Assembly (NCBI GenBank): GCA_963760795.1
Contig: CAVXEP010000013.1
Coordinates: 32,001-96,000 of the forward strand
DNA length: 64,000 nucleotides
Source of the DNA: an uncultured delta proteobacterium
Lineage (GTDB): Bacteria > Desulfobacterota > Binatia > UBA9968
Direction: 5' to 3'
The notes beneath the pieces were generated by a model. That model was not told the DNA's origin. It ran no database searches and saw only the letters and a list, made by a program, of their open reading frames with translations. The translations under genes were made by a program, and so were the position numbers. Shown piece by piece: positions 576 through 31,858 of this stretch (position 1 is the stretch's first letter; the number at the start of each line of letters is the position of its first letter).

Positions 576-675
576 TCGGCGGCGCAGAACCAACCGCGGT
601 CTATAACTTTTCTTGACAGACGCGCCGCCGCGGCTTAGGTTTCGCCGTGACAGTTACGTCACCCCGGGAGGAACC

Positions 676-1717
676 ATGACCAAGTCCAAAGTTATCGACG
701 CCGACGGCCATATCTACGAGAATCACGAGGAGATCGAAGAGTATTTCGAGGGCAAATACCGCGGCATGCGCCGGGCGCGCGCGTATCCGCTGTTCCCGTC
801 CCTCGACGGCTGGCCGCGCGGTCTCGGCGCCGGGCGCCCGGATAAAGTAACCGAGACCAAACCGGAAGACGTTATCAAGTTCGTCGACAACATGGGGCTG
901 GAAAGCACCGTGCTCTATCCCACCGCGGCGCTGGCCATCGGCTTAGTCCAAGAGCCGGCCTGGGCCTGCGCGGTTTCACGGGCCTATAACAATTGGTTCC
1001 ACGACCGCTACATCAAAAAAGACTCGCGCTTGAAAGGCGTCGCCGTGCTGCCGATCCAAGATCCCGCGAAAGCGGCCGAAGAGCTGCGCTACGCCGTGGA
1101 GAAGCTCGACATGGTCGGCGCCTTTCTACCGTCGGCCATGGTGATGAGCAAAGCCTTCGGCCATGCCGACTTTGCGCCGATCTTTCGCGAAGCCGAGCAG
1201 TTCGGCGTGCCCTTGGGCGTCCATGGCGCGCCGAGCCGCGGCTTCGGTTTCGACTTTTTCGAAGACCAGGGCCAAGTCCACGCCCTCGAACATCCGTTCC
1301 CGCTGATGATTCAGTTCACCAGCATCATTTGCGACGGCGTGTTGGAAAGATTTCCCAAGCTTAAAATCGCCTTCCTCGAAGCCGGCTGCGGCTGGCTGCC
1401 CTACATGATGGATCGTTTGGATTACGAATACGAAACCCGCGGCGCCCGCTCGTTTCCCAACATGAAAAAGAAACCCAGCGACTACGTCAAAGACTGTCCG
1501 GTGTACGTCAGCTGCGAACCGGAAGAACATTCCCTCGCCTATGTGTCGCCAAGTCATCGGCGCCGACCGCATCATGTTTCCCTCCGACTATCCGCACGAA
1601 CGAGTCTACGGCGAGTTCTTGAAGGACATCCCAGAATTGCTCAAGCGCCCGGAGTTATCCGATGACGCCAAGCAAAAAATCCTCTACGACAACGCCAAGG
1701 AGTTTTACCGGATCTGA
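676..1717 (+). CDS. Amidohydrolase_2 family protein (frameshift ~1545)
   Basis: IDADGH metal motif, VLYPT, GVLERFPKLKIAFLEAGCGWLP; shifted frame continues IGADRIMFPSDYPH...KILYDNAKEFYRI*. Confidence 0.9.
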
Positions 1718-1800: not shown

Positions 1801-2798
1801 ATGCACAAAAAATTCACTAGACTAGCTCTATGCTCTCTGCTCCTCGCTCAGAGCGTTTCCAGCTCAGGCCCAGCAGCCGAAGAAAGTCCTGCGGATAGGG
1901 TATCTAGCGCCGTTCGATCCAGCTCGTGAGTCCGCCCGTGCCGAGGGAATTCGTCTGGCTCTGCGCGAGCGTGGCTACATAGATGGACAGAACATCGCCA
2001 TCGAGTACCGATATGCGGAGGGGAAGATCGATCGGGCCCCTGAGCTTGCGAACGAGCTTGTACGTCTCAAGGTTGATCTCATCGTGGTACCAGGAGGAGA
2101 CCCATGGATTCGTGCGGCCAAGAATGCGACCAAGACGATTCCCATCGTTATAGCGGGCGGCGGGTCCGACCCTGTCGAGGCAGGCCTTGTTGAAAGCCTT
2201 GCCCGTCCCGGCGGCAACGTTACCGGCATTACAAACCTTTCCCGAGTACTAGGCGGGAAGCGGCTGGAGTTGCTCAAAGAGGCGGTTCCAAAAGTTGTCC
2301 GTGTCGCGGTACTCTACGATCCAGCCTTACCCGGCTCTGAACTCGATGTGAAAGAGGTTCTCCCAGTCGCGGCGCACGCGCTGAGGTTGACTCTTCAGCC
2401 ATGGGAGGTCCGAGGTGCGGACGGTCTCGAGAAGGTATTCGCCGCACTGAACAAGCAGCGCCCGGATGGACTCTACGTGCCCCCGTCGGGCCCGCTAATG
2501 TTTGCTAACCCAAATCGGATCGCGGACTTTGCGTTAAAAAGGCGCTTACCGTCGATGTACATCACCAGAAGCTTTGTAGATGCCGGCGGGCTCATGTCCT
2601 ACGCGGCGGACCAACGCGGAGAGCTACCGGCGCGTCGCATACTACGTGGACAGAATCCTGAAGGGAACCAAGCCCGCCGATCTGCCGGTGGAGCAGCCGA
2701 CGAAGTTCGAGTTCGTGATCAACCTTCAGACCGGCAAGCAGATCGGCGTGGCGATTGCGCCGGAGGTGTTGGCGCGGGCGAGTAGGATAATCAAATGA
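1801..2798 (+). CDS. ABC_sub_bind family substrate-binding protein, copy 1 (frameshifts ~1860, ~2615)
   Basis: [57 protein letters not shown] motifs across frames. Confidence 0.9.
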
Positions 2799-2810
2799 CA
2801 GCGGCCACCA
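2759..2810 (+). repeat. Direct repeat copy A (3' end of SBP gene plus 12 nt past the stop)
   Basis: gccggaggtgttggcgcgggcgagtaggataatcaaatgacagcggccacca; near-identical at 9612-9664, with a 21-bp exact core at 2790-2810. Confidence 0.85.
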
Positions 2811-2851
2811 ACGCGAGAGGGCATGCCGAGTGCGGACGGTAGGTCGAGCAT

Positions 2852-2878
2852 AAAAAAGGCGCCCCGATTGAGGCGCCT
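2852..2878 (-). terminator. Intrinsic terminator
   Basis: Minus strand: AGGCGCC-tcaatcgg-GGCGCCT followed by a U run. Confidence 0.75.
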
Positions 2879-2990
2879 GAGTTGGCGGTACGTTGCGGTA
2901 TCACCCCTAGCTGTAATCCACCCCTGCTGTGCTATGGGGAGGCAAAGCCAAATAGCAGAGCTAACTCTTACACGAGTCGCCAACTACTGA
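2852..2990 (-). ncRNA. Candidate structured small RNA (~135 nt)
   Basis: Sigma70-like TTCACT-N16-TATGCT (3022-2995), closing stem AGTTGGCG/CGCCAACT (2880-2887 with 2978-2985), internal stems, terminator; no credible ORF. Confidence 0.45.
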
Positions 2991-3199
2991 CTTAAGCATA
3001 GCGCTGGAAAAGTGGAAGTGAAGACCTTTCAAAAAAAATAATCAAATTTCCTAACCCGTCAAAATGCCCGGGTATCCGACTAGAGGTTTCAACCTATGGG
3101 ATGTTGCGGCAATCGTCCCTAAGCCGGCTTCGGGACTCCCTGCGCCGTGGGTCCTTGGTGGCGTGCTTCCTTCCTATGTGAGCGCCGGTGGGATTCTTA

Positions 3200-3499
3200 T
3201 TACCGTCGGTAAGGCGATCTCGGGTTTTGCCGTCGTTCTCGTTGCTCAATTTCCTCCCGCTCGCGCATAAGTTCAGGATAGCAAGCGTCAACGATCAGCC
3301 TAGCGAGTTCCAGACCGACCAACTCGGCTACCTCACGGTTCTCCAACTCGAAGTTGTGTACATTCAGTGTCGTTAGCTCTAACACTGAATTGTCGCGGCG
3401 CTGGTATAGGACGCAAGCGCCAGGCGTCGAGTTATTGCCGCCGGGATAGCCGGGAGTGGCATGCCCGGAAATCCAAAGGTCTTTGTATTGTTCCATCAT
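3200..3499 (-). CDS. Hypothetical protein (YKxxxI...AExxGL small alpha/beta family)
   Basis: 99-aa ORF MMEQYKDLWISG...VAELVGLELARLIVD; pattern shared with 4916 and 6066. Confidence 0.65.
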   Translation of the reverse strand: MMEQYKDLWISGHATPGYPGGNNSTPGACVLYQRRDNSVLELTTLNVHNFELENREVAELVGLELARLIVDACYPELMREREEIEQRERRQNPRSPYRR

Positions 3500-3514
3500 G
3501 GTGATGAGTGCGGC

Positions 3515-3763
3515 TTATTTGATCGGTTTTACATAGGCCAACACAATGGCTTTCGCGATGGCGGTTCGGATTCGCTCTGTCTTTATCTCATCGTCTGGAT
3601 TATCACCTAGGTCTGGCAACGAGACCGGAATTGAAACTCTACGCCCTCGAAGGATTACCATGTCCGGAAGACCGTTAGGATCAGGTTCTACATGCCAATC
3701 CTCGGCGAGGCCCATTAGTGCCAAAACACGGGTTATCTCTGCGCCTTGGTCAACGCTCATCAC
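3515..3763 (-). CDS. Hypothetical protein
   Basis: 82-aa ORF, co-directional and closely spaced with 3200..3499. Confidence 0.5.
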   Translation of the reverse strand: MMSVDQGAEITRVLALMGLAEDWHVEPDPNGLPDMVILRGRRVSIPVSLPDLGDNPDDEIKTERIRTAIAKAIVLAYVKPIK

Positions 3764-3843
3764 ATTGTCCGCTAGAAATCGATTTAAATCATTCTGAGGG
3801 ACTGAAGGTCAACTATGATTTTTACGAGAGTACGGATGGGCGC

Positions 3844-4104
3844 TTAAGTGGTTAGAACTCCGGCCTCTCTAAGCCCTTGGCGTATTCTTTTTATCGAGGT
3901 TGGACACTGTGCTGTGGCAATTTCCAGTAACCGTAAGGCGTCATTTTCACTACATCGAATTGCACTCATCGGCCAGGGGATAGAGAGACGTGCAGCTTCT
4001 GATTGAAGTAGTAATCGCCCAAGTCGAGAGTCGTGGTCAACGTGATTAAGAAAGAGCTTGACCTCGGTTGGGAACAGCTCAATGAAAATTTCCATCATTT
4101 GCAC
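3844..4104 (-). CDS. Hypothetical protein
   Basis: 86-aa ORF with protein-like composition (IRCSENDALRLLEIATAQCP). Confidence 0.6.
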   Translation of the reverse strand: MQMMEIFIELFPTEVKLFLNHVDHDSRLGRLLLQSEAARLSIPWPMSAIRCSENDALRLLEIATAQCPTSIKRIRQGLREAGVLTT

Positions 4105-4532
4105 TCAATTGCGACGTTTCTTGACGAGTTTCTTCTTTCCACGGCGCTTATAAACTTCGAGTTGTTTAGCCCCCATTTTTGCTAAGACAGAAGTAAAAGC
4201 CTTCGTGATCGGCGCCAGTTGAACTGCGTAGTCTGGTTTGTTGTTCGCCGAGATTCACTACGTCGCGCATAGAATGGTGTTCCTTCCGCGCCGTTTTCGG
4301 CGAAAACAAACAGGGTACCAATGATCGCTAAGACAGAGAAGAAACGCTGCATCGTAGCCACGTTTCACGGAGCGTTCTTCTACCGCACGTCCCAGAGATA
4401 AAGCAAGGCGCCGATCGCCATTGCAATTCTCAAATGCGTTAGCCTATAAATTAGCTCCATGCCCTATTGATTCTATCAAGCCCGCGTGTGCCTATTCGCA
4501 TGCAAATTCACGAACAAGAAAGGTGTGACGAT

Positions 4533-4688
4533 ATGGTCAAACCAAATAGTACGTGTCCGAAGTGCGGCAAAGGTGTGATGAAGTTGATACCCAACACTAC
4601 ACCGCTTGATCCTTCGGTCTGGAAGGACTGTCTTCGAGCGCGATGCACTGAGTGCGGACATGTGGACGACATTGCGCTCAATCCGTAA
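4533..4688 (+). CDS. Small zinc-ribbon protein (51 aa)
   Basis: CPKCGKG...CTECGH; AAGG upstream of ATG. Confidence 0.6.
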   Translation: MVKPNSTCPKCGKGVMKLIPNTTPLDPSVWKDCLRARCTECGHVDDIALNP

Positions 4689-4704
4689 GTGCTAGTGTCT
4701 CCCG

Positions 4705-4788
4705 ATGGATTCCTGGACAATCGTTGCGCTTAGTCTTGGCGTGATCCTGCCACTCTTTATCGTCGTCTGTATAATGTTCTTCCTGTAG
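4705..4788 (+). CDS. 27-aa single-TM peptide
   Basis: MDSWTIVALSLGVILPLFIVVCIMFFL*, hand-translated; weak RBS. Confidence 0.4.
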   Translation: MDSWTIVALSLGVILPLFIVVCIMFFL

Positions 4789-4915
4789 AGCGGCACCTAG
4801 TCCTACGCCCTTTGGCCGATAGTACAGCGGCGCCCGTGAGTGCTATTGCTTAGCCGTGGAATTCCGGAAAATCCTCGTCCTTATCTTCGGCGTGATCGGA
4901 TAATTTAGCAGGCCC

Positions 4916-5140
4916 ATGACAACGGCATACAGGGGTTATACAATCAACGTCACGGCGACGAGGCAGGTGGATGGGCTCTGGAGTGCGAAGATTTTGATTT
5001 GGCCGATAACTGAAACCACTAAAGGCTTGCGCCAACATAGCGAAATAAAAGGCTACTCTAGTCAGGTAAAAGCGGAGCATGCAGGTCTGCAATTGGGTCG
5101 TAAGCGACTCAATCTATACGCCCAAAATAAACTTCGTTAG
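4916..5140 (+). CDS. Small hypothetical protein, paralog of 6066..6281
   Basis: AYRGYTINVT...DGLWSAKI...GYSSQVKAEHAGL. Confidence 0.7.
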   Translation: MTTAYRGYTINVTATRQVDGLWSAKILIWPITETTKGLRQHSEIKGYSSQVKAEHAGLQLGRKRLNLYAQNKLR

Positions 5141-5261
5141 TTTCAACCTCACCCGAGCCCAACGACCCGGCGCCAGAGAAAGCACCAGAGGCGTCCAATA
5201 CTGAACAGTAATCTATACCCGGCATGATGGATTGTCTCTAGGACCACCGAGGGAGGTCCTG

Positions 5262-5390
5262 ATGACTATCGCACAAATCGAACTGATCACCGTGAAAACC
5301 CGCGAGGTAATTGATGCTGCCAACCATACGATGGAGTATACAGCAACGATAATCGAGCAATCGAAAAGATTGATGCGCAGCATGAAATGA
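5262..5390 (+). CDS. 42-aa helical peptide
   Basis: GGGAGG at 5251-5256 then MTIAQIELITVKTREVIDAANHTMEYTATIIEQSKRLMRSMK*. Confidence 0.5.
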   Translation: MTIAQIELITVKTREVIDAANHTMEYTATIIEQSKRLMRSMK

Positions 5391-5615
5391 AAAAACACCC
5401 TCCTACGCCCGCGGGTGAAACGCCGGGGTCAGTTGATTCGAACAGATAGGTTCTACGTGGCCAGCGCATTTTCTCTAATCGTGGCGCGCGCCCGCGTCGA
5501 CTGGAAAGCGGAATGAAGCAAAGCGGCCGACAGTGAAAAGCGACTATGACATTTATTGCACCGGGTCAAATCGTAACAGCCAAAAGCCGAAGGGGATTTA
5601 AGGCGAGTAAGGGCC

Positions 5616-5909
5616 TCAGTTGCCGTGCAGCATTTCAAACTCGGTGAAATCTTCCTGGCCAATATAGCGGATTACCGTCAACTGGATCTTCCTTTCTTTT
5701 GCGAAGTCTACAGCTTCTCCGCGAGTAAAGAATCTGGCAATGTCTGATCTTAATTTAGTAACGCTTCCCTTCTTGTCGATATAGCGCTTTTCTAGGCTTT
5801 TAAACTGTTGCGGACTCGCAAAGATCACCCACATGGTCGTGCGCTTCGGCTTCCGCTTCATAAGAAACGCCTCCGCTGAAGCCCATTCTATTAACACCTT
5901 GTCAGTCAT
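5616..5909 (-). CDS. Hypothetical protein
   Basis: 97-aa ORF (WVIFASP...RYIDKKG...ARFFTRGEAVDFAKE); true start may be internal. Confidence 0.6.
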   Translation of the reverse strand: MTDKVLIEWASAEAFLMKRKPKRTTMWVIFASPQQFKSLEKRYIDKKGSVTKLRSDIARFFTRGEAVDFAKERKIQLTVIRYIGQEDFTEFEMLHGN

Positions 5910-6065
5910 TTACTTGGTTTCTACCCCCGGGGCGATGGTGCCATAGGAAAGAAATCCCGCACCCGGCCGTGGATTTCTGTTCAATATTAGACAATTTCGC
6001 GATCACCACTTCCGCGCCGTCCAAGGGTTTGACTATCTGTGAGCCGGTGATAAGTAGCGGGTCCG

Positions 6066-6281
6066 ATGAAGACGGTATACAAGGGCCATACGATCGAAGT
6101 GACGATGAAGCAGAAAAATGGGCTCTGGGCGGCAGACGTTTGGACCTGGACGCCAGATCAATTTGGGAGCCACTTAAACAACTGGTGGGGAGCAGAAGGC
6201 CATAGTAGCGCGCATGACGCGGAGGTTGCGGGCCTGGTTTGGGCTAAGGCGCACATCGATATACTCTCTCAAATACGATAG
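6066..6281 (+). CDS. Small hypothetical protein, paralog of 4916..5140
   Basis: VYKGHTIEVT...NGLWAADV...GHSSAHDAEVAGLVWAKAHID. Confidence 0.7.
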   Translation: MKTVYKGHTIEVTMKQKNGLWAADVWTWTPDQFGSHLNNWWGAEGHSSAHDAEVAGLVWAKAHIDILSQIR

Positions 6282-6413
6282 TCGCAATTAATCGTGTTTC
6301 TGTTCGCAATTCGCAACAGCTCAACGGCGGGTAAGTGAAACGCAGCGATCAGTTGACGTTGAGCAGATAGTTCCTCGTTGCATGAAGCCAAGTATCTATC
6401 GCATTTAGGAGTG

Positions 6414-6440
6414 TCTGATTGTCGATCTGATTGTCGATCT
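6414..6440. repeat. 12-bp tandem duplication
   Basis: tctgattgtcga x2 plus tct. Confidence 0.7.
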
Positions 6441-6742
6441 CTTTGTCGAGCCCTTTCTCTTTCAACGAGACCCGGAGTTCAGTGAATGCTAATCAAGTTT
6501 TTCGCTCACAATGTTCTCGAACTCGTCTTCCTTATCGCGTATGGCTTCTGCCTCCGCCACCAGTTATCGATTTCTATCAAGCCGAACTGCACTACTTTGC
6601 TGACTCGAACAGCAAGCGCAGGGTGTGCCCCTGTGGTTGCAGCCGGTCTGTCTTTGACCGGAGGAAGTGGGCGATACCAGGAATGTCAAAAGAAAGCACG
6701 CGCGGCGAGTCACGGACCAGCGTTTTGCCTGCGTCCATGTAG
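6431..6742 (+). pseudogene. Probable 3' fragment of a Cys-cluster protein
   Basis: ...RRVCPCGCSRSVFDRRKWA zinc-binding-like motif; no convincing start. Confidence 0.35.
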
Positions 6743-6852
6743 TTGATTTTGTTAACGCTAAACCGGGACAAAAAAGAGGAATGGCTATATAGTCCCGTAT
6801 GCCGGGTTGATGCCCTGAAATCAGGGACATCATTTGAAGGAAGGAAACAGCA

Positions 6853-7014
6853 ATGAGCCAGGGAAAGCGGCAAACACAAGCTTACGACGAGAGAAAAGAA
6901 CCACCCTCACCGAAGAGACCTCCAATAAAAGAGCCGACGAAACCCAAGAAGCCCATCGGCGATCCGACATCAAAGAAACCACCAAAGCGGGTTTCGTCTC
7001 CCATGGCGCGATAG
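6853..7014 (+). CDS. 53-aa Pro/Lys-rich protein
   Basis: GAAGGAAGG upstream; MSQGKRQ...PPSPKRPPIKEPTKPKKPIGDPTSKKPPKRV. Confidence 0.5.
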   Translation: MSQGKRQTQAYDERKEPPSPKRPPIKEPTKPKKPIGDPTSKKPPKRVSSPMAR

Positions 7015-7136
7015 TTTCATGTATTGAAACCGCCCCCGCGGAGGCGATGATAGTGAAAAACGGCTCGCTAGAATACCCTCAGGATCAACGCTACGACGAG
7101 CAAATTATCAATGACTACATTGGGGTATCGCATCAT

Positions 7137-7715
7137 ATGGCTCACTCTGAATCACTACGTGTCATAGGGCAGTTGCTCGAGGCTGCGAACATCCGTAACT
7201 TCGTGCTGGAAACGGACGGTCCGAATTATATCGTCACCTGTGATCCCCTGACTCAAAATGGTGAATGGGTTCCCCATGAATTCAGTCCTAGTGAGTTTAC
7301 CGCGCAGACCACTCACCGACCAGTAGTTACCGGTCCAGTACGGGTCAGGCTGCCGGATATTTTTCGGCTTGAGACGCAGGCGAAGCAGCGAAGACGACAA
7401 GATTCTTTTCAAAGTGAGGCATACTCTACTGTGTCTCAATTATTGCGTAGTCTTGGCGCTCTTCTTGAGCGAATGAACGTAAGGGTTTTTCAGATTCGCT
7501 GGGGGTCTAATTCGGTCGCGGTCGATTGTCGCCGTCTCGATGGCCGATATGATTCCGTAACGTATTCCCTTGAAAAACTACAGCGATTAAGCGCATCTTC
7601 ACTATCGCGACGCTCGAAGCGCAAGTTTCCCAACCACGCGCCGTCATCAGAAGCGCTAGGTGGCGTCAAGTTTTTAGGATGTTCTAGTGGCACCCTGCCT
7701 ATCCTGGCTCTCTAA
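7137..7715 (+). CDS. Hypothetical protein with internal duplication
   Basis: SESLRVIGQLLEAANIRNFVLE resembles SQLLRSLGALLERMNVRVFQIR; same frame as ORF 6834..7715, start uncertain. Confidence 0.6.
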   Translation: MAHSESLRVIGQLLEAANIRNFVLETDGPNYIVTCDPLTQNGEWVPHEFSPSEFTAQTTHRPVVTGPVRVRLPDIFRLETQAKQRRRQDSFQSEAYSTVSQLLRSLGALLERMNVRVFQIRWGSNSVAVDCRRLDGRYDSVTYSLEKLQRLSASSLSRRSKRKFPNHAPSSEALGGVKFLGCSSGTLPILAL

Positions 7716-8672
7716 CCACGTCTCGCGCTTTCTTGTCCTTGCGAATCCCGACAAACGCGGCATGGCGCAAGTGATCGTCCGGTGTCCATTCGGTAAATTC
7801 GATTTGTACGACTAACTCAGGTTTGAGCCAGACGCAGTTTTTCATTTCTTCGGCAGTAAGCGCCCATTGGGTGCGTCTCTTTTTCTCCGGCAGATTCGCG
7901 AACGGGCAGACATCGGTTTCCAGCGGTTTCATGCGGGCCATGACTTCGCGCCGTACATGGGGCACAAAGCCGGCGCGAACTTTCCCGGCATAGAGCAGCT
8001 TGTCGCCCTCATAGTACCCTACGATTATGGCATCGAAGGGATTGCCGGGAGTGTAGCCGCCAACGACGAACTCCTGGCCTTTGTTAACCTTATATTTGAC
8101 CCAGGCTCCGCTGCGCTTTCCAGGCTCATAAAGCGAATCTTGCCGCTTGGCGATGATACCTTCAAGTCCAAGTTCCGTGATCGCCCGGATCATGTCATTG
8201 GCGGAAGCGGTCACGGTTTGCGACAGGTCAATCACTGATGGTTTCTTACGGACGGGTCGCAATAGGTCGGTGAGTGCGTCACGGCGTTTCAACAGCGGCT
8301 CATGGAGCATGCTTCGGCCACGAAGGATCAGAAGGTCAAAGACGTAGAAGCGGATCGCGGACGCTTCGGAGCGGTGACGCTGGAGCGTATTGAACGAGAC
8401 TTGTCCCTTGGAATCCATCGCGACGATCTCGCCGTCGACGAGTGTGCCGGTCGGCAGAAGTTCACATGCTTTGGCAATTGCGGGGAACTGAGAGTGAGAG
8501 CATTCGCTCTGCGCGACCATAGGCTCACGCCGCTGGCATCCTTCCCTGCCAAACATCGATAGCCGTCTAATTTGATTTCGTAGAGCCAGTCCGGCCCTTC
8601 GGGCAGGTTACGGACGCCGAGCGCATACATCGGTTCGATAAAGCTGATTTTGTCTGGCAGTGATTTCGCCAC
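7699..8672 (-). CDS. ATP-dependent DNA ligase, stand-alone LigD/LigC-type ligase plus OB domain (frameshift ~8495)
   Basis: YEIKLDGYR (motif I), VDGEIV, FYVFDLL, EGIIAK, YEPGKRSGAWVKYK, WLKPELVVQIEFTEWT, LRHAAFVGIR. Confidence 0.92.
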
Positions 8673-8909
8673 GCATCATGTTAACGAGTGGAGAAGCGCG
8701 TTGCTAGAAGGCAATCGAGGCCCATTTGCGTGAAGCGGGCGCCGTATGACATGCGCCGCCTTCGGCGCGCCTCTTTCGATGGTGCCGGCACTGTGTGACA
8801 AAGCGCCGGATACCCCACGGAGAAAGTGACGGACCTGGTTCATTATCTGCCGTAAATAATACTTTTCGCCAGTGCCACATGCGTGATAGCTTCCAGCACG
8901 AGGTGCGCA

Positions 8910-9652
8910 ATGAGGATAGTTTCTCTCAGATCAATCCTGGTCGTTACCATGCTGCTTGCTCCCTGCCTCCCAGCCGAGGCGCAGCAGCCGGCGGGAATTC
9001 CCCGGATAGGAATTATGTTGCCGACCACCGCATCCTTTTATTTGCCCCGGGTCGAAGCATTTCGCCAACGGCTGCGCGAGCTTGAGTACGTCGAAGGGAA
9101 AAACATTGTCATTGAGTACCGATATGCAGAAGGGAAACTCGAACGGCTGCCTGATCTGGCAGCCGAGCTAGTCCGTCTCAAAGGTGGAACAAGGGGAAAC
9201 CTGACCCTCACAGACATGGAGGCTGCCGCTAAGGCGTTGGGATTCAAACTTCAATCGCTTCCAGTGCGAGGCCTTGACGATTTCGAGAGCGCATTTGCGC
9301 GAGCGAAAACCGAGGGTGCCCAGGCGCTCGTTACGACCGTAAGTCCACTTATCAATACTCAGCAACGCCAAGTGTTGGACTTCGCAGCAAAGAACGGTTT
9401 GCCCGCGATGTACACAGCGAGTGAGTTTGTCGAGGCCGGCGGCTTGATGAGCTACGCGCCAAGCTCTACGGACTTATACCGGCGCGCCGCTGACTTTGTC
9501 GACAAGATCTTGAAAGGCACCAAGCCCGCCGATATTCCCGTCGAGCAGCCGACGAAGTTCGAGTTTGTAATCAATCTTGAAGACCGCCAAGCAGATCGGC
9601 CTGACGATTCCGCCGGAGGTGCTGGCGCGGGCGACGTAGGATTATCAAATGA
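8910..9652 (+). pseudogene. ABC_sub_bind protein copy 2 with ~80-codon internal deletion and 3' frameshifts
   Basis: LAAELVRLK joins directly to GGTRGNLTLTDME at ~9183; the [11 protein letters not shown]...KRLELLKE segment present in copies 1 and 3 is missing. Confidence 0.85.
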
Positions 9653-9664
9653 CAGCGGCCACCA
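9612..9664 (+). repeat. Direct repeat copy B
   Basis: gccggaggtgctggcgcgggcgacgtaggattatcaaatgacagcggccacca; matches 2759-2810. Confidence 0.85.
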
Positions 9665-9707
9665 GTCCGCGATCAGTTGTCAGCAAAAACCTCGGAGATA
9701 AAAATCC

Positions 9708-10698
9708 ATGATGAAATCCATAGTCATCTGGTTACTGGCAACTGCCATTGTGATTTCTGCTCCCACCGCCAACGCGCAACAGGCTGGGAAAATCCTCCGC
9801 ATCGGTTTCCTGGATCCAAGCACCGCTTCTGGCAGGTCGGTCCTCATGGAGGCGTTCCGGCAGGAGTTGCAGAAGCTTGGTTGGATCGAGGGGAAAAATA
9901 TCACCATCGAATACCGATTTACAGACCACAAGACTGAGCGCCTACCTGAGCTTGCGGCAGACCTTGTCCGTCTCAAGGTTGATGTCATCATCGTTACATC
10001 GCCGGCGGCGGCGTTGGCGGCCAAGAGCGCCACTACTACCATCCCTATCGTGGTGACGAACTCTGCGGACCCCGTCGGCGAAGGTCTGGTTGCCAGCCTG
10101 GCGCGGCCGGGAGGCAATGTCACCGGTTTCTCGAATTTAGCAACCGAGCTAAATACCAAAAGGCTAGAGGTACTCAAGGACGCGGTCCCCAAGCTCGCCC
10201 GAGTTGGTACTTATGCGGCGGTCGACAAATAGCGTAGCAGTAGACCTCCAAATGAAAGAGCTTAGGCCTGCGGCTCTGGCACTGAAGCTAAAATTGGAGG
10301 AGATCGAAACTCAACCCGACGCCAAGGGTTTAGAGAGCGCCTTTAATACCGCGAAGCAGAAACAGGTGGACGCGATTATGACCACCTCCAGTCCCTCCTT
10401 TTTCGCCGAAAGAAAGCGGATCGTCGAGCTTGCCGGCAAATACCGGTTGCCGGCTATTTACTCCCAGAAGGAGTTTGTCGATGAAGGCGGTCTCATGTCC
10501 TACGGGGCGGACTACGATGACCTCTATCGGCGCGCGGCTGTTTACGTCGACAAGATTTTGAAAGGCGCCAAACCGGCTGACCTGCCGGTGCAGCAGGCGA
10601 CCAAGTTTGAGTTTGTCATCAACTTGAAGGCGGCGAAACAGATCGGACTGACACTTTCACCGGAGTTTCTCTCGCGGGCGAATCGGGTGATCAAATGA
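9708..10698 (+). CDS. ABC_sub_bind protein copy 3 (frameshift ~10210)
   Basis: ORFs 9708..10232 and 10204..10698 join into a full-length family member. Confidence 0.9.
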
Positions 10699-10822
10699 AT
10701 CAAGATCCTTCACATTCGTTCAGGACAAGTTTTGGATTTTCGTCTGCGGAACCGCTTTTCGAATTTGGATTGGGGACTAGGACATGACTTGCCTGCCCTC
10801 GGCGCAATTTAACTGTTCGGAC

Positions 10823-10848
10823 GGGCAACCACGGGGGGTTGCCCCTAC
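10823..10848 (-). repeat. GTAG-type REP hairpin
   Basis: Reverse strand GTAG-GGGCAACC-ccccgt-GGTTGCCC. Confidence 0.7.
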
Positions 10849-10878
10849 ATCGATAAATGATAAGAGGTGCAGATCATT

Positions 10879-11874
10879 ATGAAGCAATCCTTATTCATCT
10901 CGCTACTACTGCTTTTCACCAACGTTGCCTTCGCCCAGGACGCCAAGCTCATCGAAGCGGCCAAGAAAGACGGCAAGCTGATCGTCTACGGCACCATGCA
11001 ATCGGATATATTCGAACTGCTGCAAAAATCCTTTCAAAGAAAGACCGGCATCGCCATCGACTACTGGCGCACCTCGGCGACCAAGGTGATGGAGCGCGCG
11101 CTCAGCGAAGCGCGCGCCGGCAAGGCGCTGTTCGATCTGGTCATGTCCACCGAAGACACCCAGCGGATTATGCTCAAGGAAGGCATCCTGACGAAATACG
11201 AATCGCCGATGATCAAAGACTTTCCCAAAGACGCGATCGACCCGCAATTGGGACCGCGGGCGCGCAACCATATCGTCGGCGTCATGTATAACAAGAATGA
11301 GATAAAACCCGCCGACGCGCCGAAGACTTTAGAAGATCTAGTCAAGCCGCAATACCGCGGCAAGCTGGTCATGGCCGATCCGACCTTGCACACGACGACG
11401 GCGCAATGGCTCGCCAACTTGCATAAGCTCATGGGCAAAGACCGGGCCGACAAATTTATCCGCGATCTCGCCGCGATGAAGCCGATCCTAGTGGAATCCT
11501 TCGCCCCCTCCGCCGACCGCGTCACCACCGGCGAGACTCCCATCGGCATCACCTACGTCTATTACGTATTTTTGAACGGCCAGAAAGGCGCGCCAGTGGA
11601 CTACGTGCGCGGCGACTACCGGCTCCTGGGCGACGCCAGCTACATGTCGATCTTCCACAAAGCGCCCCATCCGAGCGCCGCCAAAGCTTTCATCGACTTT
11701 TTCCTCGATGACGAGAGCATGAACATCATGGCCAAGGCCGGCGAGTTCGTAAACCGCAAAGGCGTCTACCCGCCGGTGCCCGACGCGGATAAGATCAAGT
11801 TCGTCGAGATGGACGATCTCGGCGAGATCTTCTACGCCGAGAAACGCAAAGAGTTCCAGAAGCTATTTCGCTAA
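10879..11874 (+). CDS. ABC extracellular solute-binding protein (Fe3+/AfuA-like family)
   Basis: Signal peptide, LIEAAKKDGKLIVYG, KAPHPSAAKAFIDF. Confidence 0.88.
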   Translation: MKQSLFISLLLLFTNVAFAQDAKLIEAAKKDGKLIVYGTMQSDIFELLQKSFQRKTGIAIDYWRTSATKVMERALSEARAGKALFDLVMSTEDTQRIMLKEGILTKYESPMIKDFPKDAIDPQLGPRARNHIVGVMYNKNEIKPADAPKTLEDLVKPQYRGKLVMADPTLHTTTAQWLANLHKLMGKDRADKFIRDLAAMKPILVESFAPSADRVTTGETPIGITYVYYVFLNGQKGAPVDYVRGDYRLLGDASYMSIFHKAPHPSAAKAFIDFFLDDESMNIMAKAGEFVNRKGVYPPVPDADKIKFVEMDDLGEIFYAEKRKEFQKLFR

Positions 11875-11876
11875 TT

Positions 11877-12911
11877 ATGATGATCCGACCCAGCACCCGA
11901 TTACTCCAACACTCTAATTTCGTGTTCGTCTTCGTGCTCGTGCTCGTGACTTTGATTGCGAGTGGCGGTGAATTGCGCGCGCAAGCCCTGATCAAGGTCC
12001 CCTTCCCCTACTCGCCGATCAACTCAAGCAGTTTACCTTGGATGATCGCCAAGGATGCCAAGCTGTTTGAGAAGCATGGGCTCGATGTCGACTTGGTCTA
12101 CTTCGGCGCTTCGTCGCTGATTCTCCAGACGATGCTGTCAGGCTCGGCCAACTATGCCGGCTTTGCCGGACCGGCGATCATCTCCAACGTGCTCAAAGGC
12201 GGCGACGTGATTACCATAGGCGCTCTCACGCCGATGAGCATTTCGCTGCTCACCCGGGCGTCCATCGAAAAGGGCGAAGACCTGCGCGGCAAGAAGATCG
12301 GCATCAGCCGCCTCGGCGCGGTGCCGCACTTAGCGATTCAGTTGATCCTGGATAAATTCGCGATCAAAGACGCGACCATTCTACAAATGGGCGGCCAGCC
12401 CGAAGCAGCGGCCGCGCTACGAAGGGGCATCGTCGACGGCGCCATGGTTTCGGCGCCACTATCGTTTCAGCTGGTCAAAGAGGGGTTTCGCGAGTTGATC
12501 GGCACACCGGAGTACCAGAGGTTAGGAATCAATTTTACTTCGCAGGGCATCGCCGCGCGCCGGTCCTTTGCCGCGAAGAACCGCGACGTGACGGTGCGCT
12601 TGATCAAAGGCACCATGGAAGGCGTCAAAACCATGTGGGCGAACGAGAGCCTGGCCAAGAAAGTACTCGCCAAGTACGCGCGCCAAAGCGATGCCGAATT
12701 GCTCGACCGCACCTACAAAGACGCGCTCGCAACCGTTGCCCGCGATCCGACCTCATCGAAAGATTCCGTTGTTTCGACAGTGCGGCTGATGGCCGACCTC
12801 GGCCTCGCCGACCGCGCTGCGGTCAACAGCACGCCAGTAGAAGCGTTCTACGACAACAGCTACATCGATGAGATCAAACAATCGGGCTTTCTAAAGGAGC
12901 TGTGGCGATGA
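11877..12911 (+). CDS. NitT/TauT (NMT1/THI5-like) substrate-binding protein
   Basis: WMIAKDAKLFEKHGLDVDLV, DLRGKKIGISRLG. Confidence 0.88.
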   Translation: MMIRPSTRLLQHSNFVFVFVLVLVTLIASGGELRAQALIKVPFPYSPINSSSLPWMIAKDAKLFEKHGLDVDLVYFGASSLILQTMLSGSANYAGFAGPAIISNVLKGGDVITIGALTPMSISLLTRASIEKGEDLRGKKIGISRLGAVPHLAIQLILDKFAIKDATILQMGGQPEAAAALRRGIVDGAMVSAPLSFQLVKEGFRELIGTPEYQRLGINFTSQGIAARRSFAAKNRDVTVRLIKGTMEGVKTMWANESLAKKVLAKYARQSDAELLDRTYKDALATVARDPTSSKDSVVSTVRLMADLGLADRAAVNSTPVEAFYDNSYIDEIKQSGFLKELWR

Positions 12912-13895
12912 CCCAACGGCGCTTTGTCGGATCTGTCCTATCCATTCTATGTTTCTACACGCTGCTACAATCGAGCGCAGAGGCTTTCGCCGCCGACGCC
13001 CCGGCGCAGAACCAAGATCAGGATCGCCACCGCGGCGCCGTCGTTGAGCTACTTTCCGATCTACGCCGCGGTGCAAAAAGGCTTCTTCGCCCGGCGCGGC
13101 TTCGACGTCGAGATGATCCAGATGGCCCCTAGCTTAACCGCGGCGGCGCTGCTCAATCGCTCGGTGGATTACACGATCATCCCCAGCACCATCGCCACCG
13201 CCGCCGCCCGCGGCGCGCCGGCGAAAGTCATCATGTTTGCCTCGGTGAAACTGCAACACACCCTGGTCGTGCGCGCCGATGTCAATGCAATCACCGATTT
13301 AGCCGGCAAGAAAATCGCCGGCAGCGGCTTCGGCAACCTGGTCGCCTATGAAATCCAGTTTCTCATCGAGCGCTACAAGCTCGGTCCCAAGACCACCATC
13401 ATCAACGCGCCGTCCTCCATCGACCGCTTGATCGCCGTGCAGAAAGGCCTTGCCGAAGCCGCGATCATCGCCGCTCCGGCCGATATCAAAGGCGAAGAGA
13501 TGGGGCTCAAGCGCTTGGTGCAGATGGGCACGCTGCTGCAAATTCCCCAGGCCGGCCTCGCCGCCACCGACGAGAAAATCAAAACCAACCGCGGCGAAGT
13601 CATCGAAGTTCTCAAAGCCGCCATCGACGGTTTGGAATACACGGCGAATCAGCGGGAAGACGCCACGGCATTAATCGGCAAATGGATGGCGCTCACGCCA
13701 ACCCAAGCAGTCAAAGCGTACGATAGCGTCAAAGACACCTACTCCCGCGACGGCGTGCCGACGCCCGAGCAAAGTAAAGCCTACATCGCCATGCTCGCCG
13801 CCACCGCCGGCCTGAGCGCCGATCTGCCGGCGGCGACGATCTTCGATTTTTCGCTGTCCGCCGCCGCTGCCAAAGAACTCGCGGCAAAAAAGTGA
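12908..13895 (+). CDS. NitT/TauT substrate-binding protein (frameshift ~13008)
   Basis: ATGA overlap with the upstream stop; signal peptide in one frame, then IYAAVQKGFFARRGFDVE, DLAGKKIA. Confidence 0.85.
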
Positions 13896-13979: not shown

Positions 13980-14053
13980 CCCTCCCACTGTTCAGGAATT
14001 CTCCGGTGGAATGTTATGATGTTGAGATTCGCATCAATTCCACGGAGACTTTC

Positions 14054-15338
14054 TTGTCCAAAGCATTCGGTCTCGACTTCGGCACCACCAATAGCGCCTT
14101 GGCCCTCGCCCACGCCGACCACACCGTGGAGCTCGCCCGTTTTGGCGCCGGCTCGACCTTTCGGTCGATTCTTTACTTTGAGCAAGACGAGGCTTCGAAG
14201 AGCGGCTCGCTGCGCGTGGTCGCCGGGCCTGACGCGATCCAAGGCTATTTGAATGCGCGCATGCCGGGACGGTTGATTCAATCGACCAAGTCCTATCTCG
14301 CCAGCCGGTTATTCAGCCAGACACAGATATTCAATCAAACTTTCTCACTGGAAGAATTGATCGGCACCCTGCTGCGTTATCTGCGCAAGTCCGCCGAATC
14401 TCAGTTCGGCGATCTCGGCACCAAGCTGGTGGTCGGCCGCCCGGTTCACTTCAGCGGCACGAAAGATTCAAAGGACGACGCCTTCGCGGTTGCGCGCTTG
14501 CGCAAAGCCTTTGCCAACGCCGGCTTCGACGAGGTCCACTTCTTGCCCGAGCCGGTCGCCGCCGCCTACAAGTACCGCCAGCGGCTCGACCACGACGAAC
14601 TCGTGCTGATCGCCGACTTCGGCGGCGGCACCAGCGATTTTTCCCTGGTCAAATTGCAACCGGCGCAAACTTCGACAGCTGAATTGGCCGATCAAGTGAT
14701 CGGCAATCGATGGCGTCGGCATCGCCGGCGATACTTTTGACAGTAAACTTGTGCGCCATCTGGTGGCGCCGATGCTGGGCTTGGGCAGCCAATACAAGAC
14801 TGAATTCGGCAAAGTCCTACCCGTGCCCAACTGGCTCTACGAGCATTTGGAACGCTGGCACTACCTGTCGTTTCTCAAGACCCGGAAAAACATCGAACTG
14901 CTCAAGCAGATTCGCTTCCAAGCCCTGGCGCCGGAAAAGCTCGACGCGCTGATCGAGCTGGTCGACCAGGATCTCGGCTACCGCCTGCACCAAGCGATCG
15001 AGGCGGTCAAGTGCGGTTTATCGGAACAGACGAGCAGCCAATTTCATTTCAAAGAAGCGGCCATCGATATCGAGAAATCCGTCGCACGCGGCGATTTCGA
15101 GCAGTGGATCGGCGCCGAAGTGAGCGCGATCGCAGCCTGTGTCGACAGACTGCTCGCCAATTGCAACATCGCTGCCCATGAAATCGATGCGGTATTCATG
15201 ACCGGCGGCTCGTCGTTCGTACCGGCGATCCGAAGAATCTTTGACAGCAAATTCCCCAAGGCGCCGATCCGCGCCGGCCAGGAGTTCACCTCGGTGGCCG
15301 AGGGTTTGGCGCTGCATGCGCTGGAACAGCTAAATTGA
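14054..15338 (+). CDS. yegD: Hsp70-family protein, YegD-like (frameshift ~14708)
   Basis: GLDFGTTNS, VVGRPVHF, EPVAAA, DFGGGTSDFS, VFMTGGSS; lacks a substrate-binding domain. Confidence 0.85.
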
Positions 15339-15414: not shown

Positions 15415-16401
15415 ATGATGGCGCAGTGGAAAACAGTTGCCTTGACGCTCTGGCTGGCGATCGGCTGCTTGGGCGCGCCGCTGCACGCCCAGAGCGCGCC
15501 GGACAAGATCACCCTCGGCACGATCACGCTTTCGCTCAACAATTTGCCGATTTACGTCGCCCAGGAAAAGGGCTTTTTCGTCAAAGAGAATATTTTTCTT
15601 GAAGCCGTGGTGTTGAACGCCAGCACGCTGGCGATCCCCGTGTTGATCGCCGGCTCGACCCAGGTGTCGGCATCCTCGGCCATGACCACCATCCGGGCGG
15701 TTGAGAAAGGCGCGGCGCTCAAGATCGTCGGCGGCCTGACCAACGCGCCGGTTTACGATCTCTACGCCAGTCCCAAGCACAAAACTTTCAAAGATCTCAA
15801 AGGCAGCACCATCGGCGTGTCGGGCTTGATCACCAGCGACACGGTGATCATGAAAGAAATGCTCAAGGCCAACGGCCTGGAGTATCCGCGCGATTACGCC
15901 TTACGCGTCATGGGCAGCATGCCCGACCGCTTCCTGGCGATGCAGACCGGCAATATCGCCGCGGCGATTCTCAGCCCGCCCTACAGCTTCGGCGCCGACG
16001 AAGCCGGCTTGATCAACCTCGGCGCCACCGCCAAGTACACGCCAAATTTCGTTCAGACTGTCTTCAACGTCCGCGCCGACTTCGCCCAAGACAAGAAAGC
16101 GTTGTTGGTTCGTTTCCTGCGCGCGATCCTGCGCGCCGACCAATGGATCCACAACCAGAAGGAAGACACCGTGCGCATCATCGTCAAGCGGCTTAAGTAT
16201 AGCGAGAAACATTCCGAAGCGAGTTGGCGCTACTACATCAACACCAACGCCATCCCCAAAGACGGCGAAATCAATCCCAAGGGCATGGACAAGGTCATGC
16301 AGTTGCTGGTCGAAGACGGCACCCTGGCCCAACCACCGCCCAAGACCGACAAGTATGTCGACATGAGCTATCTCGCCGAAGCGCGCCGGACGTTACAATA
16401 A
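15415..16401 (+). CDS. NitT/TauT substrate-binding protein
   Basis: Signal peptide, IYVAQEKGFF, DLKGSTIGVS. Confidence 0.88.
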   Translation: MMAQWKTVALTLWLAIGCLGAPLHAQSAPDKITLGTITLSLNNLPIYVAQEKGFFVKENIFLEAVVLNASTLAIPVLIAGSTQVSASSAMTTIRAVEKGAALKIVGGLTNAPVYDLYASPKHKTFKDLKGSTIGVSGLITSDTVIMKEMLKANGLEYPRDYALRVMGSMPDRFLAMQTGNIAAAILSPPYSFGADEAGLINLGATAKYTPNFVQTVFNVRADFAQDKKALLVRFLRAILRADQWIHNQKEDTVRIIVKRLKYSEKHSEASWRYYINTNAIPKDGEINPKGMDKVMQLLVEDGTLAQPPPKTDKYVDMSYLAEARRTLQ

Positions 16402-16460
16402 AGTTCTGCGTGACCCGCGTTGGCGATCTACCGATACCGATCACCAGATTCCCAGATTCA

Positions 16461-22981: not shown

Positions 22982-23962
22982 ATGAAAGCCGATCTGAAGC
23001 TCATTGGCGTCCTGGCGGTTCTGGCAGGGTTAATCGGAACTCGACCGGCCATAGGTCAGACTCTCGATAAAGTCCGCTTGGGCAACAGCGGGACCGGCAT
23101 CAACGTTTACCTGCTGGATATCGGCAAGCGCTTAGGCATCTTCCGTAAGCACGGCATCGACCTCGAAGCGATCTATGTGAGCAGCGGCTCGCTGCTCAAC
23201 CAAGCGCTGCTGGCCGGCACCTTCGACATGGTCATGTCGCAGGGCTCGGAAGCGATGATGATGAAACTGCGCGGCGCCGATCTGCGCATCAACGCCGTGG
23301 TCGCCAACCGTTTCAATCACGTCTATCTCAGCGGTCCCTCGATCACTTCGATCAAACAACTCAAAGGCAAACGGGTCGCCGTCAGCCGCTTCGGTTCGGG
23401 CTCCCACTTCCAGACCAACCTCGCGCTCAAGGACGGCGGACTCGATACGGAAAAGGATGTGACAGTTTTGCAAATCGGCAATTCCGCGGCGCGCATGGCA
23501 GCGATCTTAAGCGGCACCGTCGACGGCACGATCATGGCCGCCGACTTCGTACCCAGGGCGAAGAAAGCCGGCTTTAATATTCTCACCGATCTCGCTGAGA
23601 CCAAGATCGAATATCCATTTCTTTCCGTGCATATGCTCGGTAGCTATACCGACCGCAATCTACGCGTCGTCAAAGCCCTGATCAAGGGGATGTCGGAATC
23701 CATCCGCGCGCTGCAGAGCGATCCGGCAATAGCCAAAACGGCGATCCGCGCCGCCCTGCGCACCGATGACCAGGAAACCATCGACTACGCGCTGGCGCGC
23801 GCCGTTCAAGTGCTCGACCGCCGCCCCTTCCCTACTCCCGGCGGCATTCAAACCGTGCTTGACGAGCTCGGCAAAGAGGCTAAAGCCAAAGCGTGGAAGT
23901 TCGACGACTTCGTCGATCTGCGCGCGCTGCGGGAACTGGAGAAAGAAGGATTTTTCAAATAG
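22982..23962 (+). CDS. NitT/TauT substrate-binding protein
   Basis: GIFRKHGIDLE, QLKGKRVAVSRFGSGS, ELEKEGFF. Confidence 0.88.
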   Translation: MKADLKLIGVLAVLAGLIGTRPAIGQTLDKVRLGNSGTGINVYLLDIGKRLGIFRKHGIDLEAIYVSSGSLLNQALLAGTFDMVMSQGSEAMMMKLRGADLRINAVVANRFNHVYLSGPSITSIKQLKGKRVAVSRFGSGSHFQTNLALKDGGLDTEKDVTVLQIGNSAARMAAILSGTVDGTIMAADFVPRAKKAGFNILTDLAETKIEYPFLSVHMLGSYTDRNLRVVKALIKGMSESIRALQSDPAIAKTAIRAALRTDDQETIDYALARAVQVLDRRPFPTPGGIQTVLDELGKEAKAKAWKFDDFVDLRALRELEKEGFFK

Positions 23963-23964
23963 CT

Positions 23965-25792: not shown

Positions 25793-25875
25793 TTCACCCC
25801 GAAGGACACGAAGAGCACCAAGTGTCAGGGATTTGTTTATCCGAACCGTTCGTGTCTTCGTGCGCTTCGTGGTGA
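25793..25875. repeat. CACGAAG/CTTCGTG palindromic repeat
   Basis: ttcaccccgaaggacacgaagagcac...cttcgtgcgcttcgtggtga. Confidence 0.8.
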
Positions 25876-28005: not shown

Positions 28006-28041
28006 GGTGGTGTCTCCTTATGAATGAATGCACAAGTCGTG

Positions 28042-28120
28042 TTCACCACGAAGGACACGAAGAGCACGAAGTTCGGATAACTTTCCGAACTTCGTGCTCT
28101 TCGTGATCCTTCGTGGTGAA
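28042..28120. repeat. Near-perfect palindrome of the CACGAAG family (~36-bp arms)
   Basis: ttcaccacgaaggacacgaagagcacgaagttcgga-taactt-tccgaacttcgtgctcttcgtgatccttcgtggtgaa. Confidence 0.9.
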
Positions 28121-28160
28121 AGAACTTTTCCGAACTTTGCGCCCTTTGCGTTCTTTGCGG

Positions 28161-29076: not shown

Positions 29077-29102
29077 CGCTAACCTCCAATTTAAATAATG
29101 CC

Positions 29103-31796: not shown

Positions 31797-31858
31797 AAGT
31801 CTTCACTATGGACCCGGACGAGCATTCTTCAGAGTTCGACGAATGTGAGGATGCCGCC

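Follow-up and report, generated by a model that had tools for sequence, protein, structure and literature searches.

We analysed a 64,000-nt stretch of DNA from an uncultured delta proteobacterium (GenBank assembly GCA_963760795.1, contig CAVXEP010000013.1, positions 32,001 to 96,000; hereafter the window), and within it ~5.9 kb of DNA lying between the first two genes of a tandem array of orphan ABC_sub_bind paralogs, which encode substrate-binding proteins (SBPs). Our favoured reading, to which we assign a probability of about 0.6, is that the array contains a hotspot of gene turnover and horizontal transfer that lacks an integrase and relies on host recombination, with the insert as a passive passenger. 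The insert is strain-specific, is located at a spot where relatives carry toxin–antitoxin (TA) pairs, and is not a new mobile element. A first-pass annotation, made from the sequence of the window, had described an integrase-less island bounded by direct repeats, had taken these repeats for either an attL/attR-like pair or SBP-based recombination anchors for variable cargo, and had put the region forward as an undescribed system. The last of these proposals was not borne out, as what we found were the tails of paralogs and the pattern of an integrase-less hotspot. On this ordinary reading the window adds one more integrase-less hotspot, from an uncultured lineage. It also carries a caution, namely that the tails of paralogs, when they have a few post-stop bases in common, mimic att sites.

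The variable nature of the region is apparent from related loci. Using the amidohydrolase gene to the left of the array as a query, and keeping one genome per species, we collected 80 loci (numbered with the prefix L), mostly from metagenome-assembled genomes (MAGs) of Binatia type, whose labels vary between "uncultured delta proteobacterium" and "Candidatus Binatia". The amidohydrolase protein is 84–95% identical in relatives. Twenty-one loci with at least 70% protein identity (L001–L019, L042, and L058) were compared with the window by blastn. In 11 of these (L002, L005–L007, L009, and L011–L016), the amidohydrolase gene is followed directly by the SBP_bac_6 gene that forms the right flank of the array in the window, and no intergenic SBP remnant was found in any of the 11 except L002. 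L018 and L019 pass from the amidohydrolase straight to a later NMT1 gene, L058 terminates inside an SBP start, and downstream similarity is absent from L003 (which has only ~190 nt of downstream sequence), L004, L010, L017, and L042. At 11115–11200, L002 retains just ~66 nt from the start of copy 1, comprising the ATG and signal-peptide codons, and this stretch abuts the SBP_bac_6 start. As this remnant shows, L002 once had the SBP array and has since undergone a clean deletion of all of it. Across related genomes, the interval between the amidohydrolase and SBP_bac_6 genes thus holds different accessory content, which is the mark of a hotspot.

The insert itself is missing from all of these relatives. 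In searches of the 80 loci at E ≤ 1e-3, all 21 protein queries taken from 2726–8672 came back without a homolog, which makes the insert, among the available genomes, specific to the window. At looser settings, the matches were distant ligase paralogs (best E 0.001), situated ~8 kb away from amidohydrolase paralogs, and, as the other match from the insert, an element in L048 that resembles a candidate small RNA at its left edge. The closest relative, L001 (94% DNA identity), has a scrambled SBP gene at 7006–7663 that combines a copy-1-like 5′ end, an inverted internal piece (7148–7370), and a copy-3-like 3′ end. L008 (81% DNA identity) has three intact SBP genes, encoding proteins of 329, 328, and 327 aa, and is alone in having copies 1 and 3 together with the 3′ end of copy 2; in place of the ~5.9 kb it carries a 0.87-kb MNT/HEPN pair. 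As no other locus keeps both neighbours of the insertion point, L008 is the only guide to the alternative allele. A check for an empty site comes down to L008, which is without the insert but with the TA pair, and to L001 and L002, in which the region is deleted. Given that the insert has no homologs in the 80 loci and that a TA pair occupies its position in L008, the region is not syntenic. The first-pass annotation was consequently right to see an island, which the relatives lack, but not one bounded by the repeats, as the right repeat lies ~0.75 kb inside the next gene.

All four cargos seen in the relatives are small modules of TA type, and behind every one stands an orphan fragment from the 3′ part of an SBP gene. 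Three such units stand in a row in L008, where the fragments (f1, f2, and f3) follow an MNT+HEPN, a ParE+Phd-like, and an MNT+HepT pair, respectively (Table 1). In L001, the order is the scrambled SBP gene, a BrnT/CopG-like pair, an SBP 3′ fragment of ~66–72 nt, and SBP_bac_6; the pair falls below the Pfam cutoffs (BrnT 21.4 versus 34.5; CopG 25.3 versus 28) and is only suggestive of a type II TA system. The fragments begin at different bases (their lengths being 168, 84, 72, and 66–72 nt), and imprecise joins are therefore favoured. Between L008 f3 and the L001 fragment, orthology is probable; the junctions of the two lie ~8 nt apart, behind different cargos. The proposal that SBP paralogs serve as anchors for variable cargo fits the arrangement in L008 and L001, but the same cargo was not seen at two SBP sites in the compared loci, and the varying fragment starts also count against it.

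No mobility function was detected. Pfam identified no integrase, transposase, or recombinase in the 91 stop-to-stop open reading frames (ORFs) of at least 35 aa overlapping 2592–7715, and indeed no match of any kind above cutoff in this set, which agrees with the first-pass statement that the region has neither integrase nor transposase. Recombinase families were likewise not found in 34 ORFs searched against NCBIfam and PHROGs, where PHROGs returned the ligase plus one weak match and nothing else, or among the 58 other ORFs of the window; PADLOC gave no match for 27 ORFs. A scan for tRNA and tmRNA (transfer-messenger RNA) genes found none. Rfam gave no match at gathering score, and at E ≤ 5 over 2700–9800 it gave 7 chance-level matches, all with E > 1. 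There was no blastn match of 2811–8900 to plasmid and phage collections, and there are no terminal inverted repeats around the insert. When the insert and the four cargos of the relatives were inspected for terminal repeats, only short pairs of low identity were found, SBP ends excepted.

The anatomy of the repeat was established directly. The 21-mer ATCAAATGACAGCGGCCACCA occurs exactly at 2790–2810 and 9644–9664 on the + strand, and these are its only two occurrences in the window even with up to 3 mismatches allowed; it did not occur in 100 dinucleotide-preserving shuffles. It is made up of the final two codons of SBP copies 1 and 2, the TGA stop (2796–2798 and 9650–9652), and 12 nt beyond. 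Identity between the two copies rises toward the 3′ end (72% over 141 nt, 82% over 102 nt, 91% over 54 nt, and 97% over 29 nt), and the homology covers the entire gene, with BLAST giving 240 nt at 80.8%. The post-stop sequence of copy 3 (stop 10696–10698) is unlike that of copies 1 and 2, so that this copy does lack the non-coding part of the repeat, as had been noted at first pass. Judged from the sequence, then, two neighbouring paralogs that are homologous at their 3′ ends account for the "direct repeats". Of the ~52-bp repeat that had been described, the 21-bp core is genuine and present at exactly two sites, but there is no separate element, the homology being that of whole genes. Similarly, the deleted SBP copy that had been placed between the repeats has a real deletion but is copy 2 itself, the bearer of the right repeat. 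Because copy 2 starts at 8910, ~735 nt ahead of that repeat, we placed the end of the insert at ~8673–8909.

We then aligned eleven SBP ends and measured their identities. Six ends of the copy-1/2 type (copies 1 and 2 of the window; copy 1, f1, and f3 of L008; and the L001 fragment) are 87–95% identical over the last 66 nt, with copies 1 and 2 of the window, at 87%, at the bottom of the range. The ~100 nt preceding this terminal box are 71–81% identical in the copy-1/2 subtype, whereas the copy-3 subtype has no such contrast, with 83–92% in both segments. The box follows the pattern ATCGGC.TGACGATTGCGCCGGAGGTG.TGGCGCGGGCGAC plus the stop codon. After the stop, CAGCGG(C/T)C is found in copies 1 and 2 of the window, in L008 f1, and in the L001 SBP gene, and CAGAAG or TAGAAG in two other fragments. 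Of the 12 bases beyond the stop, eight are found again in other genomes, and the last four (ACCA) are peculiar to the window. Following the 12-mer, the window sequence ACGCGAGAGGG resembles the flank GGCGCGAGAGAAT of the L008 copy 1 ortholog; the orthologous flank seems to resume here, with foreign DNA beginning a few bases later. Because the six ends are so similar across genomes and eight of the post-stop bases recur, the post-stop conservation is mostly the inherited 3′ flank of the duplicated unit. The earlier claim of conservation beyond the reach of protein selection is therefore upheld, but its attribution to an att site is not, as ACCA is all that exceeds the ancestral flank. We also considered a recent conversion event in which copy 2 donated the 3′ end of copy 1, and rejected this, as the identity matrix gives it no support; the 3′ part of copy 1 is 80–87% identical to L008 copy 1 and 81–90% identical to L008 f1.

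The history that we favour may be outlined as follows. The array, which lies between the conserved amidohydrolase and SBP_bac_6 genes and has the hotspot inside it, would have a duplication unit that extended a few bases past the stop codon. The repeat would thus cross the stop because the unit ran beyond it and because the terminal box of ~66 nt is unusually well kept in this subtype. Some 5.9 kb of foreign or fast-turnover DNA would have entered the spacer just after copy 1 with no recombinase of its own, and both entry and turnover may have occurred by illegitimate joins together with homologous exchange in conserved flanking or paralogous genes. The additional 4-nt identity after the stop might stem from local gene conversion or from chance. 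The two arms of homology could let RecA delete the insert, and there is no sign of a dedicated excision system.

Several observations weigh against a hotspot of this passive kind. A clean empty allele, with copy 1 directly before an intact copy 2, was not found in the related loci, and the informative relatives are two only, L008 and L001. The 66-nt box is as conserved in non-coding fragments as in full genes. The orphan pieces are 3′ pieces in all four cargos, never 5′ or internal ones, and three of the four fragment starts fall within ~15 nt; this 3′-end bias and clustering would be more regular than random deletion predicts, a regularity that the probable orthology of L008 f3 and the L001 fragment lessens. 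The motif CGCGAGA, which we picked post hoc, stands 7–13 nt past the stop and right before three cargos, and may be inherited flank. Just as ACCA is confined to the window pair, the ending GATTC(A/G)GTGA is confined to L008 f2 and its left neighbour. A fine blastn comparison of the relatives' cargos with the insert gave a single 16-nt exact match and no more (window 3620–3635; 20/22 over window 3616–3637 versus L008 14237–14258, E 8e-4), and the L008 partner lies in the post-stop flank of its copy 3.

Some of these regularities would be expected if the SBP 3′ box anchored RecA-type recombination by the host of units consisting of an SBP 3′ end plus cargo, an explanation that we regard as unlikely while taking it seriously. 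Such units would arrive by Campbell-type integration of a circle, or by one homologous and one illegitimate join, and the resident 3′ tail would be displaced downstream, giving strings of full gene, cargo, and orphan 3′ fragment such as have been proposed for rhs, contact-dependent inhibition (CDI), and type VI secretion system (T6SS) loci. The architecture does recur, as full gene, TA pair, and 3′ fragment three times in L008 and once, with a weaker pair, in L001, and the full gene, cargo, and damaged copy of the window match the layout. The high identity of non-coding fragments to full genes in the box, and pair-specific endings across two cargos (ACCA in the window; that of copy 3 and f2 in L008), speak for it as well. 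L008 f3 and the L001 fragment stand behind different TA pairs, which therefore points to exchange of cargo at one site. Yet no cargo is present at two different SBP loci, copy 1 of the window has no clear mosaic signal, the fragment starts vary (by up to ~100 nt for f1), and the 3′ fragments may instead have been maintained by selection for the region upstream of the next gene. A single crossover between arms that are 81% identical, with a longest exact match of 21 nt, would also be inefficient given what RecA needs in a substrate. It is doubtful, by a shade more, that the ~66-nt box of one ABC_sub_bind subfamily is a recombinase-free docking sequence through which "box + cargo" modules are exchanged among paralogs by host recombination. 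If so, cassettes would be exchanged by displacement with an ordinary multi-copy housekeeping gene family as the foundation, in place of integron sites or polymorphic toxins. Soil bacteria very commonly have expanded families of orphan genes for binding proteins; on the anchored-cassette reading, these would serve at the same time as landing pads for accessory DNA, and part of the spread of small genes and TA pairs through genomes that have no recognisable mobile elements would be accounted for.

Two further explanations are far less probable. One is site-specific integration, in which the box or a post-stop motif is attB-like, the recombinase is encoded elsewhere, and the 21-mers are the attL and attR of an excisable element. 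The exact 21-mer that crosses the stop codon, the three cargos that start just after CGCGAGA, and the three fragment starts within ~15 nt would suit it, but there is no recombinase in the insert or in the scanned ORFs of the window, the right repeat is off the edge of the insert, ~735 nt inside copy 2, similarity runs 1 kb to the left of the "site", the fragments are of unequal length (168, 84, 72, and ~70 nt), and the f3 and L001 junctions are displaced by ~8 nt. The att pair proposed at first pass is therefore unsupported: the repeats are where two paralogs homologous over the whole gene come to an end, their 87% is no higher than in other pairs, most of the identity after the stop belongs to an ancestral flank, the right repeat is misplaced, and no recombinase turned up in the ORFs scanned. 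The other, as improbable, is an assembly artefact, whereby a segment of lower GC from another genome or locus was joined at the SBP sequence and the frame breaks reflect a poor consensus. The GC drop of ~7 points, the frame breaks in copies 1–3, the ligase, and an HSP70-like gene that is whole in L013, and the many split genes of L001, the closest relative, are what an artefact could produce. Exact identity of only 21 nt (29 nt with one mismatch), however, is too short for a misjoin of long reads or at large k, and GC is close to that of the host in the ligase gene (0.556) and in the 5′ half of copy 2 (0.559). Parts of the insert are also known from elsewhere, as a related MAG has a copy (81% identical) of the candidate small RNA from the left edge, and public contigs include homologs, at up to 96% identity, of the gene of the ~173-aa family.

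Among known systems, the integrase-less hotspot that we favour has close counterparts. According to Oliveira et al. (2017; PMC5635113), mobile elements are missing from about half of hotspots and any integrase or transposase from 27%, and turnover is proposed to proceed through double homologous recombination within the core genes that flank them. The window is alike in having differing accessory genes at one position between conserved flanks, no integrase, transposase, tRNA, or recognisable mobile element, and turnover that is plausibly the work of housekeeping homologous recombination. It is unlike in that the flanks here are a tandem paralog array, itself accessory, and that orphan 3′ fragments occur at the junctions. 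Islands that tyrosine recombinases insert at the 3′ ends of genes or tRNAs resemble it in their direct repeats, formed by a 3′ end and a few bases, and in the lower-GC cargo between them, but here there is no recombinase, the repeats belong to whole-gene paralogs, the right one is off the boundary, and no single-copy empty site was found. Integrons have IntI, attI, and attC sites that are imperfect palindromes, and their arrays are often rich in TA cassettes. The relatives' row of small TA cassettes parted by a recurring sequence of 70–170 nt recalls chromosomal integrons, but that sequence is an SBP coding fragment and no integrase family was found. The region falls outside the integrative-island and integron classes because their recombinases were looked for and not found, and neither was the site structure of an integrative island.

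Arrays that arise by C-terminal displacement and contain orphan modules were reportedly described by Jackson in 2009 and by Poole in 2011. They are similar in having a full gene followed by orphan 3′ regions beside small cargo (three units in L008 and one in L001). They differ in several respects: the second copy in the window is damaged and not a bare fragment, the gene that recurs codes for a periplasmic binding protein instead of a polymorphic toxin, and the orphan pieces represent its conserved end (87–95%). Variable toxic tips with cognate immunity genes, the defining feature of such arrays, are missing, the cargos here being unrelated genes or TA pairs complete in themselves. Homology-facilitated illegitimate recombination is said to have been described by de Vries and Wackernagel in 2002. 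Experimental documentation of this process is reported in PMC3240628, and PMC5361080 proposes a homologous "anchor" together with an illegitimate join, free of any integrase, for the orphan modules of rhs, CDI, and T6SS loci.

Table 1. Features of the SBP array, its insert, and the corresponding region of L008 (positions in the window unless marked L008).
Feature	Position	Strand	Basis or remark
Amidohydrolase (PF04909)	613–1665	+	Pfam E 6.8e-19; conserved left flank; query for related loci
SBP copy 1 (ABC_sub_bind, PF04392)	1801–2798	+	Pfam on ORFs 2084–2785 and 2580–2798
Left arm of 3′ homology	2573–2810	+	Contains exact 21-mer 2790–2810
Window-specific inserted DNA	2811–8909	.	Left edge 2811–2822; right edge within 8673–8909; ~5.9 kb
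Candidate small RNA, ~180 nt	2850–3028	-	Promoter-like site 3062–3035; strong intrinsic terminator, stem 2878–2857 plus T-run
Two adjacent small ORFs	3515–3763 (82 aa), 3200–3499 (99 aa)	-	ORF list
Zinc-ribbon-like small ORF, CxxC...CxxC	4533–4688	+	Weak sub-threshold zinc-ribbon matches only
CV_2116/DUF6566-like small protein	4916–5140	+	NF046097 E 9.7e-8, 32 bits, below cutoff of 58; PF20204 E 5e-4
ORF of 97 aa	5616–5909	-	Sole match a weak PHROG, E 0.0046
Paralog of the 4916–5140 ORF	6066–6281	+	35% identity; NF046097 E 0.025
Conserved hypothetical, ~173-aa family	7137–7715	+	12 homologs, none with a Pfam domain
Stand-alone ATP-dependent DNA ligase domain gene, non-homologous end joining (NHEJ) type	7699–8672	-	PF01068 + PF04679
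SBP copy 2	8910–9652	+	Pfam match to profile 153–272 only
Right arm of 3′ homology	9426–9664	+	Contains exact 21-mer 9644–9664; orthologous to L008 f1 (L008 13015–13193)
Copy 2–copy 3 spacer	9665–9707	+	Conserved with L008 (..AATCAGTTGTCAGCAAAA..GGAGA..ATG)
SBP copy 3, different 3′ subtype	9708–10698	+	Pfam on 9708–10232 and 10204–10698
SBP_bac_6-type binding protein	10867–11874	+	Pfam; conserved right flank of variable region
L008 copy 1 ortholog	11152–12141		Intact, 329 aa
L008 MNT+HEPN pair	12253–12979		NTP_transf_2+HEPN, Pfam above cutoff
L008 f1, SBP 3′ fragment of 168 nt	After MNT+HEPN		Then same spacer as window
L008 copy 3	Ends 14231		Intact, 328 aa
L008 ParE + Phd-like pair	14319–14895		ParE+Unstab_antitox, Pfam above cutoff
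L008 f2, ~84-nt SBP 3′ fragment	After ParE pair		Then homologous spacer
L008 second copy-3-type gene	Ends 16026		Intact, 327 aa
L008 MNT+HepT pair	16147–16822		NTP_transf_2+HepT, Pfam above cutoff
L008 f3, ~72-nt SBP 3′ fragment	After MNT+HepT		Then SBP_bac_6 gene

The GC content of the insert is 0.516 (2811–8909) and falls to 0.504 over 3041–7136, as against 0.587 in copy 1, 0.594 in the amidohydrolase gene, and 0.575 in the rest of the window; the AT-richer ~6 kb with small ORFs seen at first pass is thereby confirmed, as is the DNA ligase between the repeats. The candidate small RNA is 81% identical to L048:14398–14590 (for window 2850–3062, L048:14398–14596), which lies next to surE in another Binatia-type MAG. 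It matched no Rfam family, and among its base pairs there is none with a change on both sides, in a comparison of two sequences only. The two adjacent ORFs at 3515–3763 and 3200–3499 matched nothing in Pfam, NCBIfam, PHROG, or PADLOC, and Atlas offered leads only (top score 0.87). The products of the ORFs at 4916–5140 and 6066–6281 have the pattern Y.G.TI.VT..GLW / AE.AGL in common. A possible third relative is the ORF at 3200–3499, on the basis of a C-terminal AE..GL motif only; the DUF6566 cluster was 12th in its Atlas list (0.85), which is a lead only.

The best homolog of the 7137–7715 product is 96% identical over 166 aa, and the C-termini differ. Just upstream of this gene, in a different frame, is a Lys/Pro-rich ORF of 53 aa (6853–7014) with a good ribosome-binding site (GGAAGGA), which could be a separate small gene or the broken N-terminus of the gene that follows. 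The ligase gene has one frame break near 8480–8500, possibly an assembly error. Its 285-aa piece scored 216.2 bits against TIGR02779 (cutoff 227.75) and its N-terminal piece 40.5 bits, and the KxDG adenylation motif is present (EIKLDGYR).

All three SBP copies of the window passed the PF04392 gathering score of 25.9 (copy 1, 76.6 + 35.8 bits; copy 2, 59.3; copy 3, 72.1 + 88.3). Copy 1 has two apparent frame breaks, near 1850–1870 and near 2624, and copy 3 a single one near 10205. Copy 2 lacks ~88 residues internally (Pfam profile positions 65–153) and has two 1-nt insertions close to its 3′ end, near 9577 and 9637. A weak promoter-like site (9677–9705) lies within the spacer between copies 2 and 3, and several NMT1-type genes are also found to the right of the array.

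In L001, nearly every downstream gene (8595–13021) is split, and the same genes are whole in L013; the single-nucleotide breaks of frame in the window's copies 1 and 3 and its ligase gene may therefore be consensus indel errors rather than gene decay, and we dropped pseudogenisation as their explanation on the same grounds. An error of this kind could not account for the loss of 88 residues from copy 2. The HSP70-like gene of the window is divided into 244 + 195 aa, compared with 426 aa in L013, and the mannosyltransferase-like gene at 23660–25681 into three overlapping ORFs. Split genes also occur in the window at 14006–15338, 27226–28005, and 29369–30244.

A self-BLAST of the window and the 80 loci (1.38 Mb) for pairs of a gene end and a fragment yielded L025 as the sole true case in another gene family. 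There, the last 182 nt of a dioxygenase gene (16221–16402) are repeated 1 kb downstream (17401–17582) at 90.7% identity, which stops exactly at the stop codon, and a TenA/haem-oxygenase-like gene lies between them on the opposite strand. It is thus a second instance of a gene, an insert, and a 3′ copy. Pairs at 25.8, 28.0, and 31.7 kb were rejected as gene fragments, as they proved to be palindromes resembling repetitive extragenic palindromic (REP) elements (CACCACGAAGG...CCTTCGTGGTG). There are three copies (25793–25875, 28042–28121, and 31736–31797), one of which overlaps the 3′ end of an epimerase ORF (28018–29109). Finally, an intergenic direct repeat of 89 nt (80%) is located at 46388–46475 and 47478–47564, on either side of a CO-dehydrogenase flavoprotein-like gene (46676–47473).

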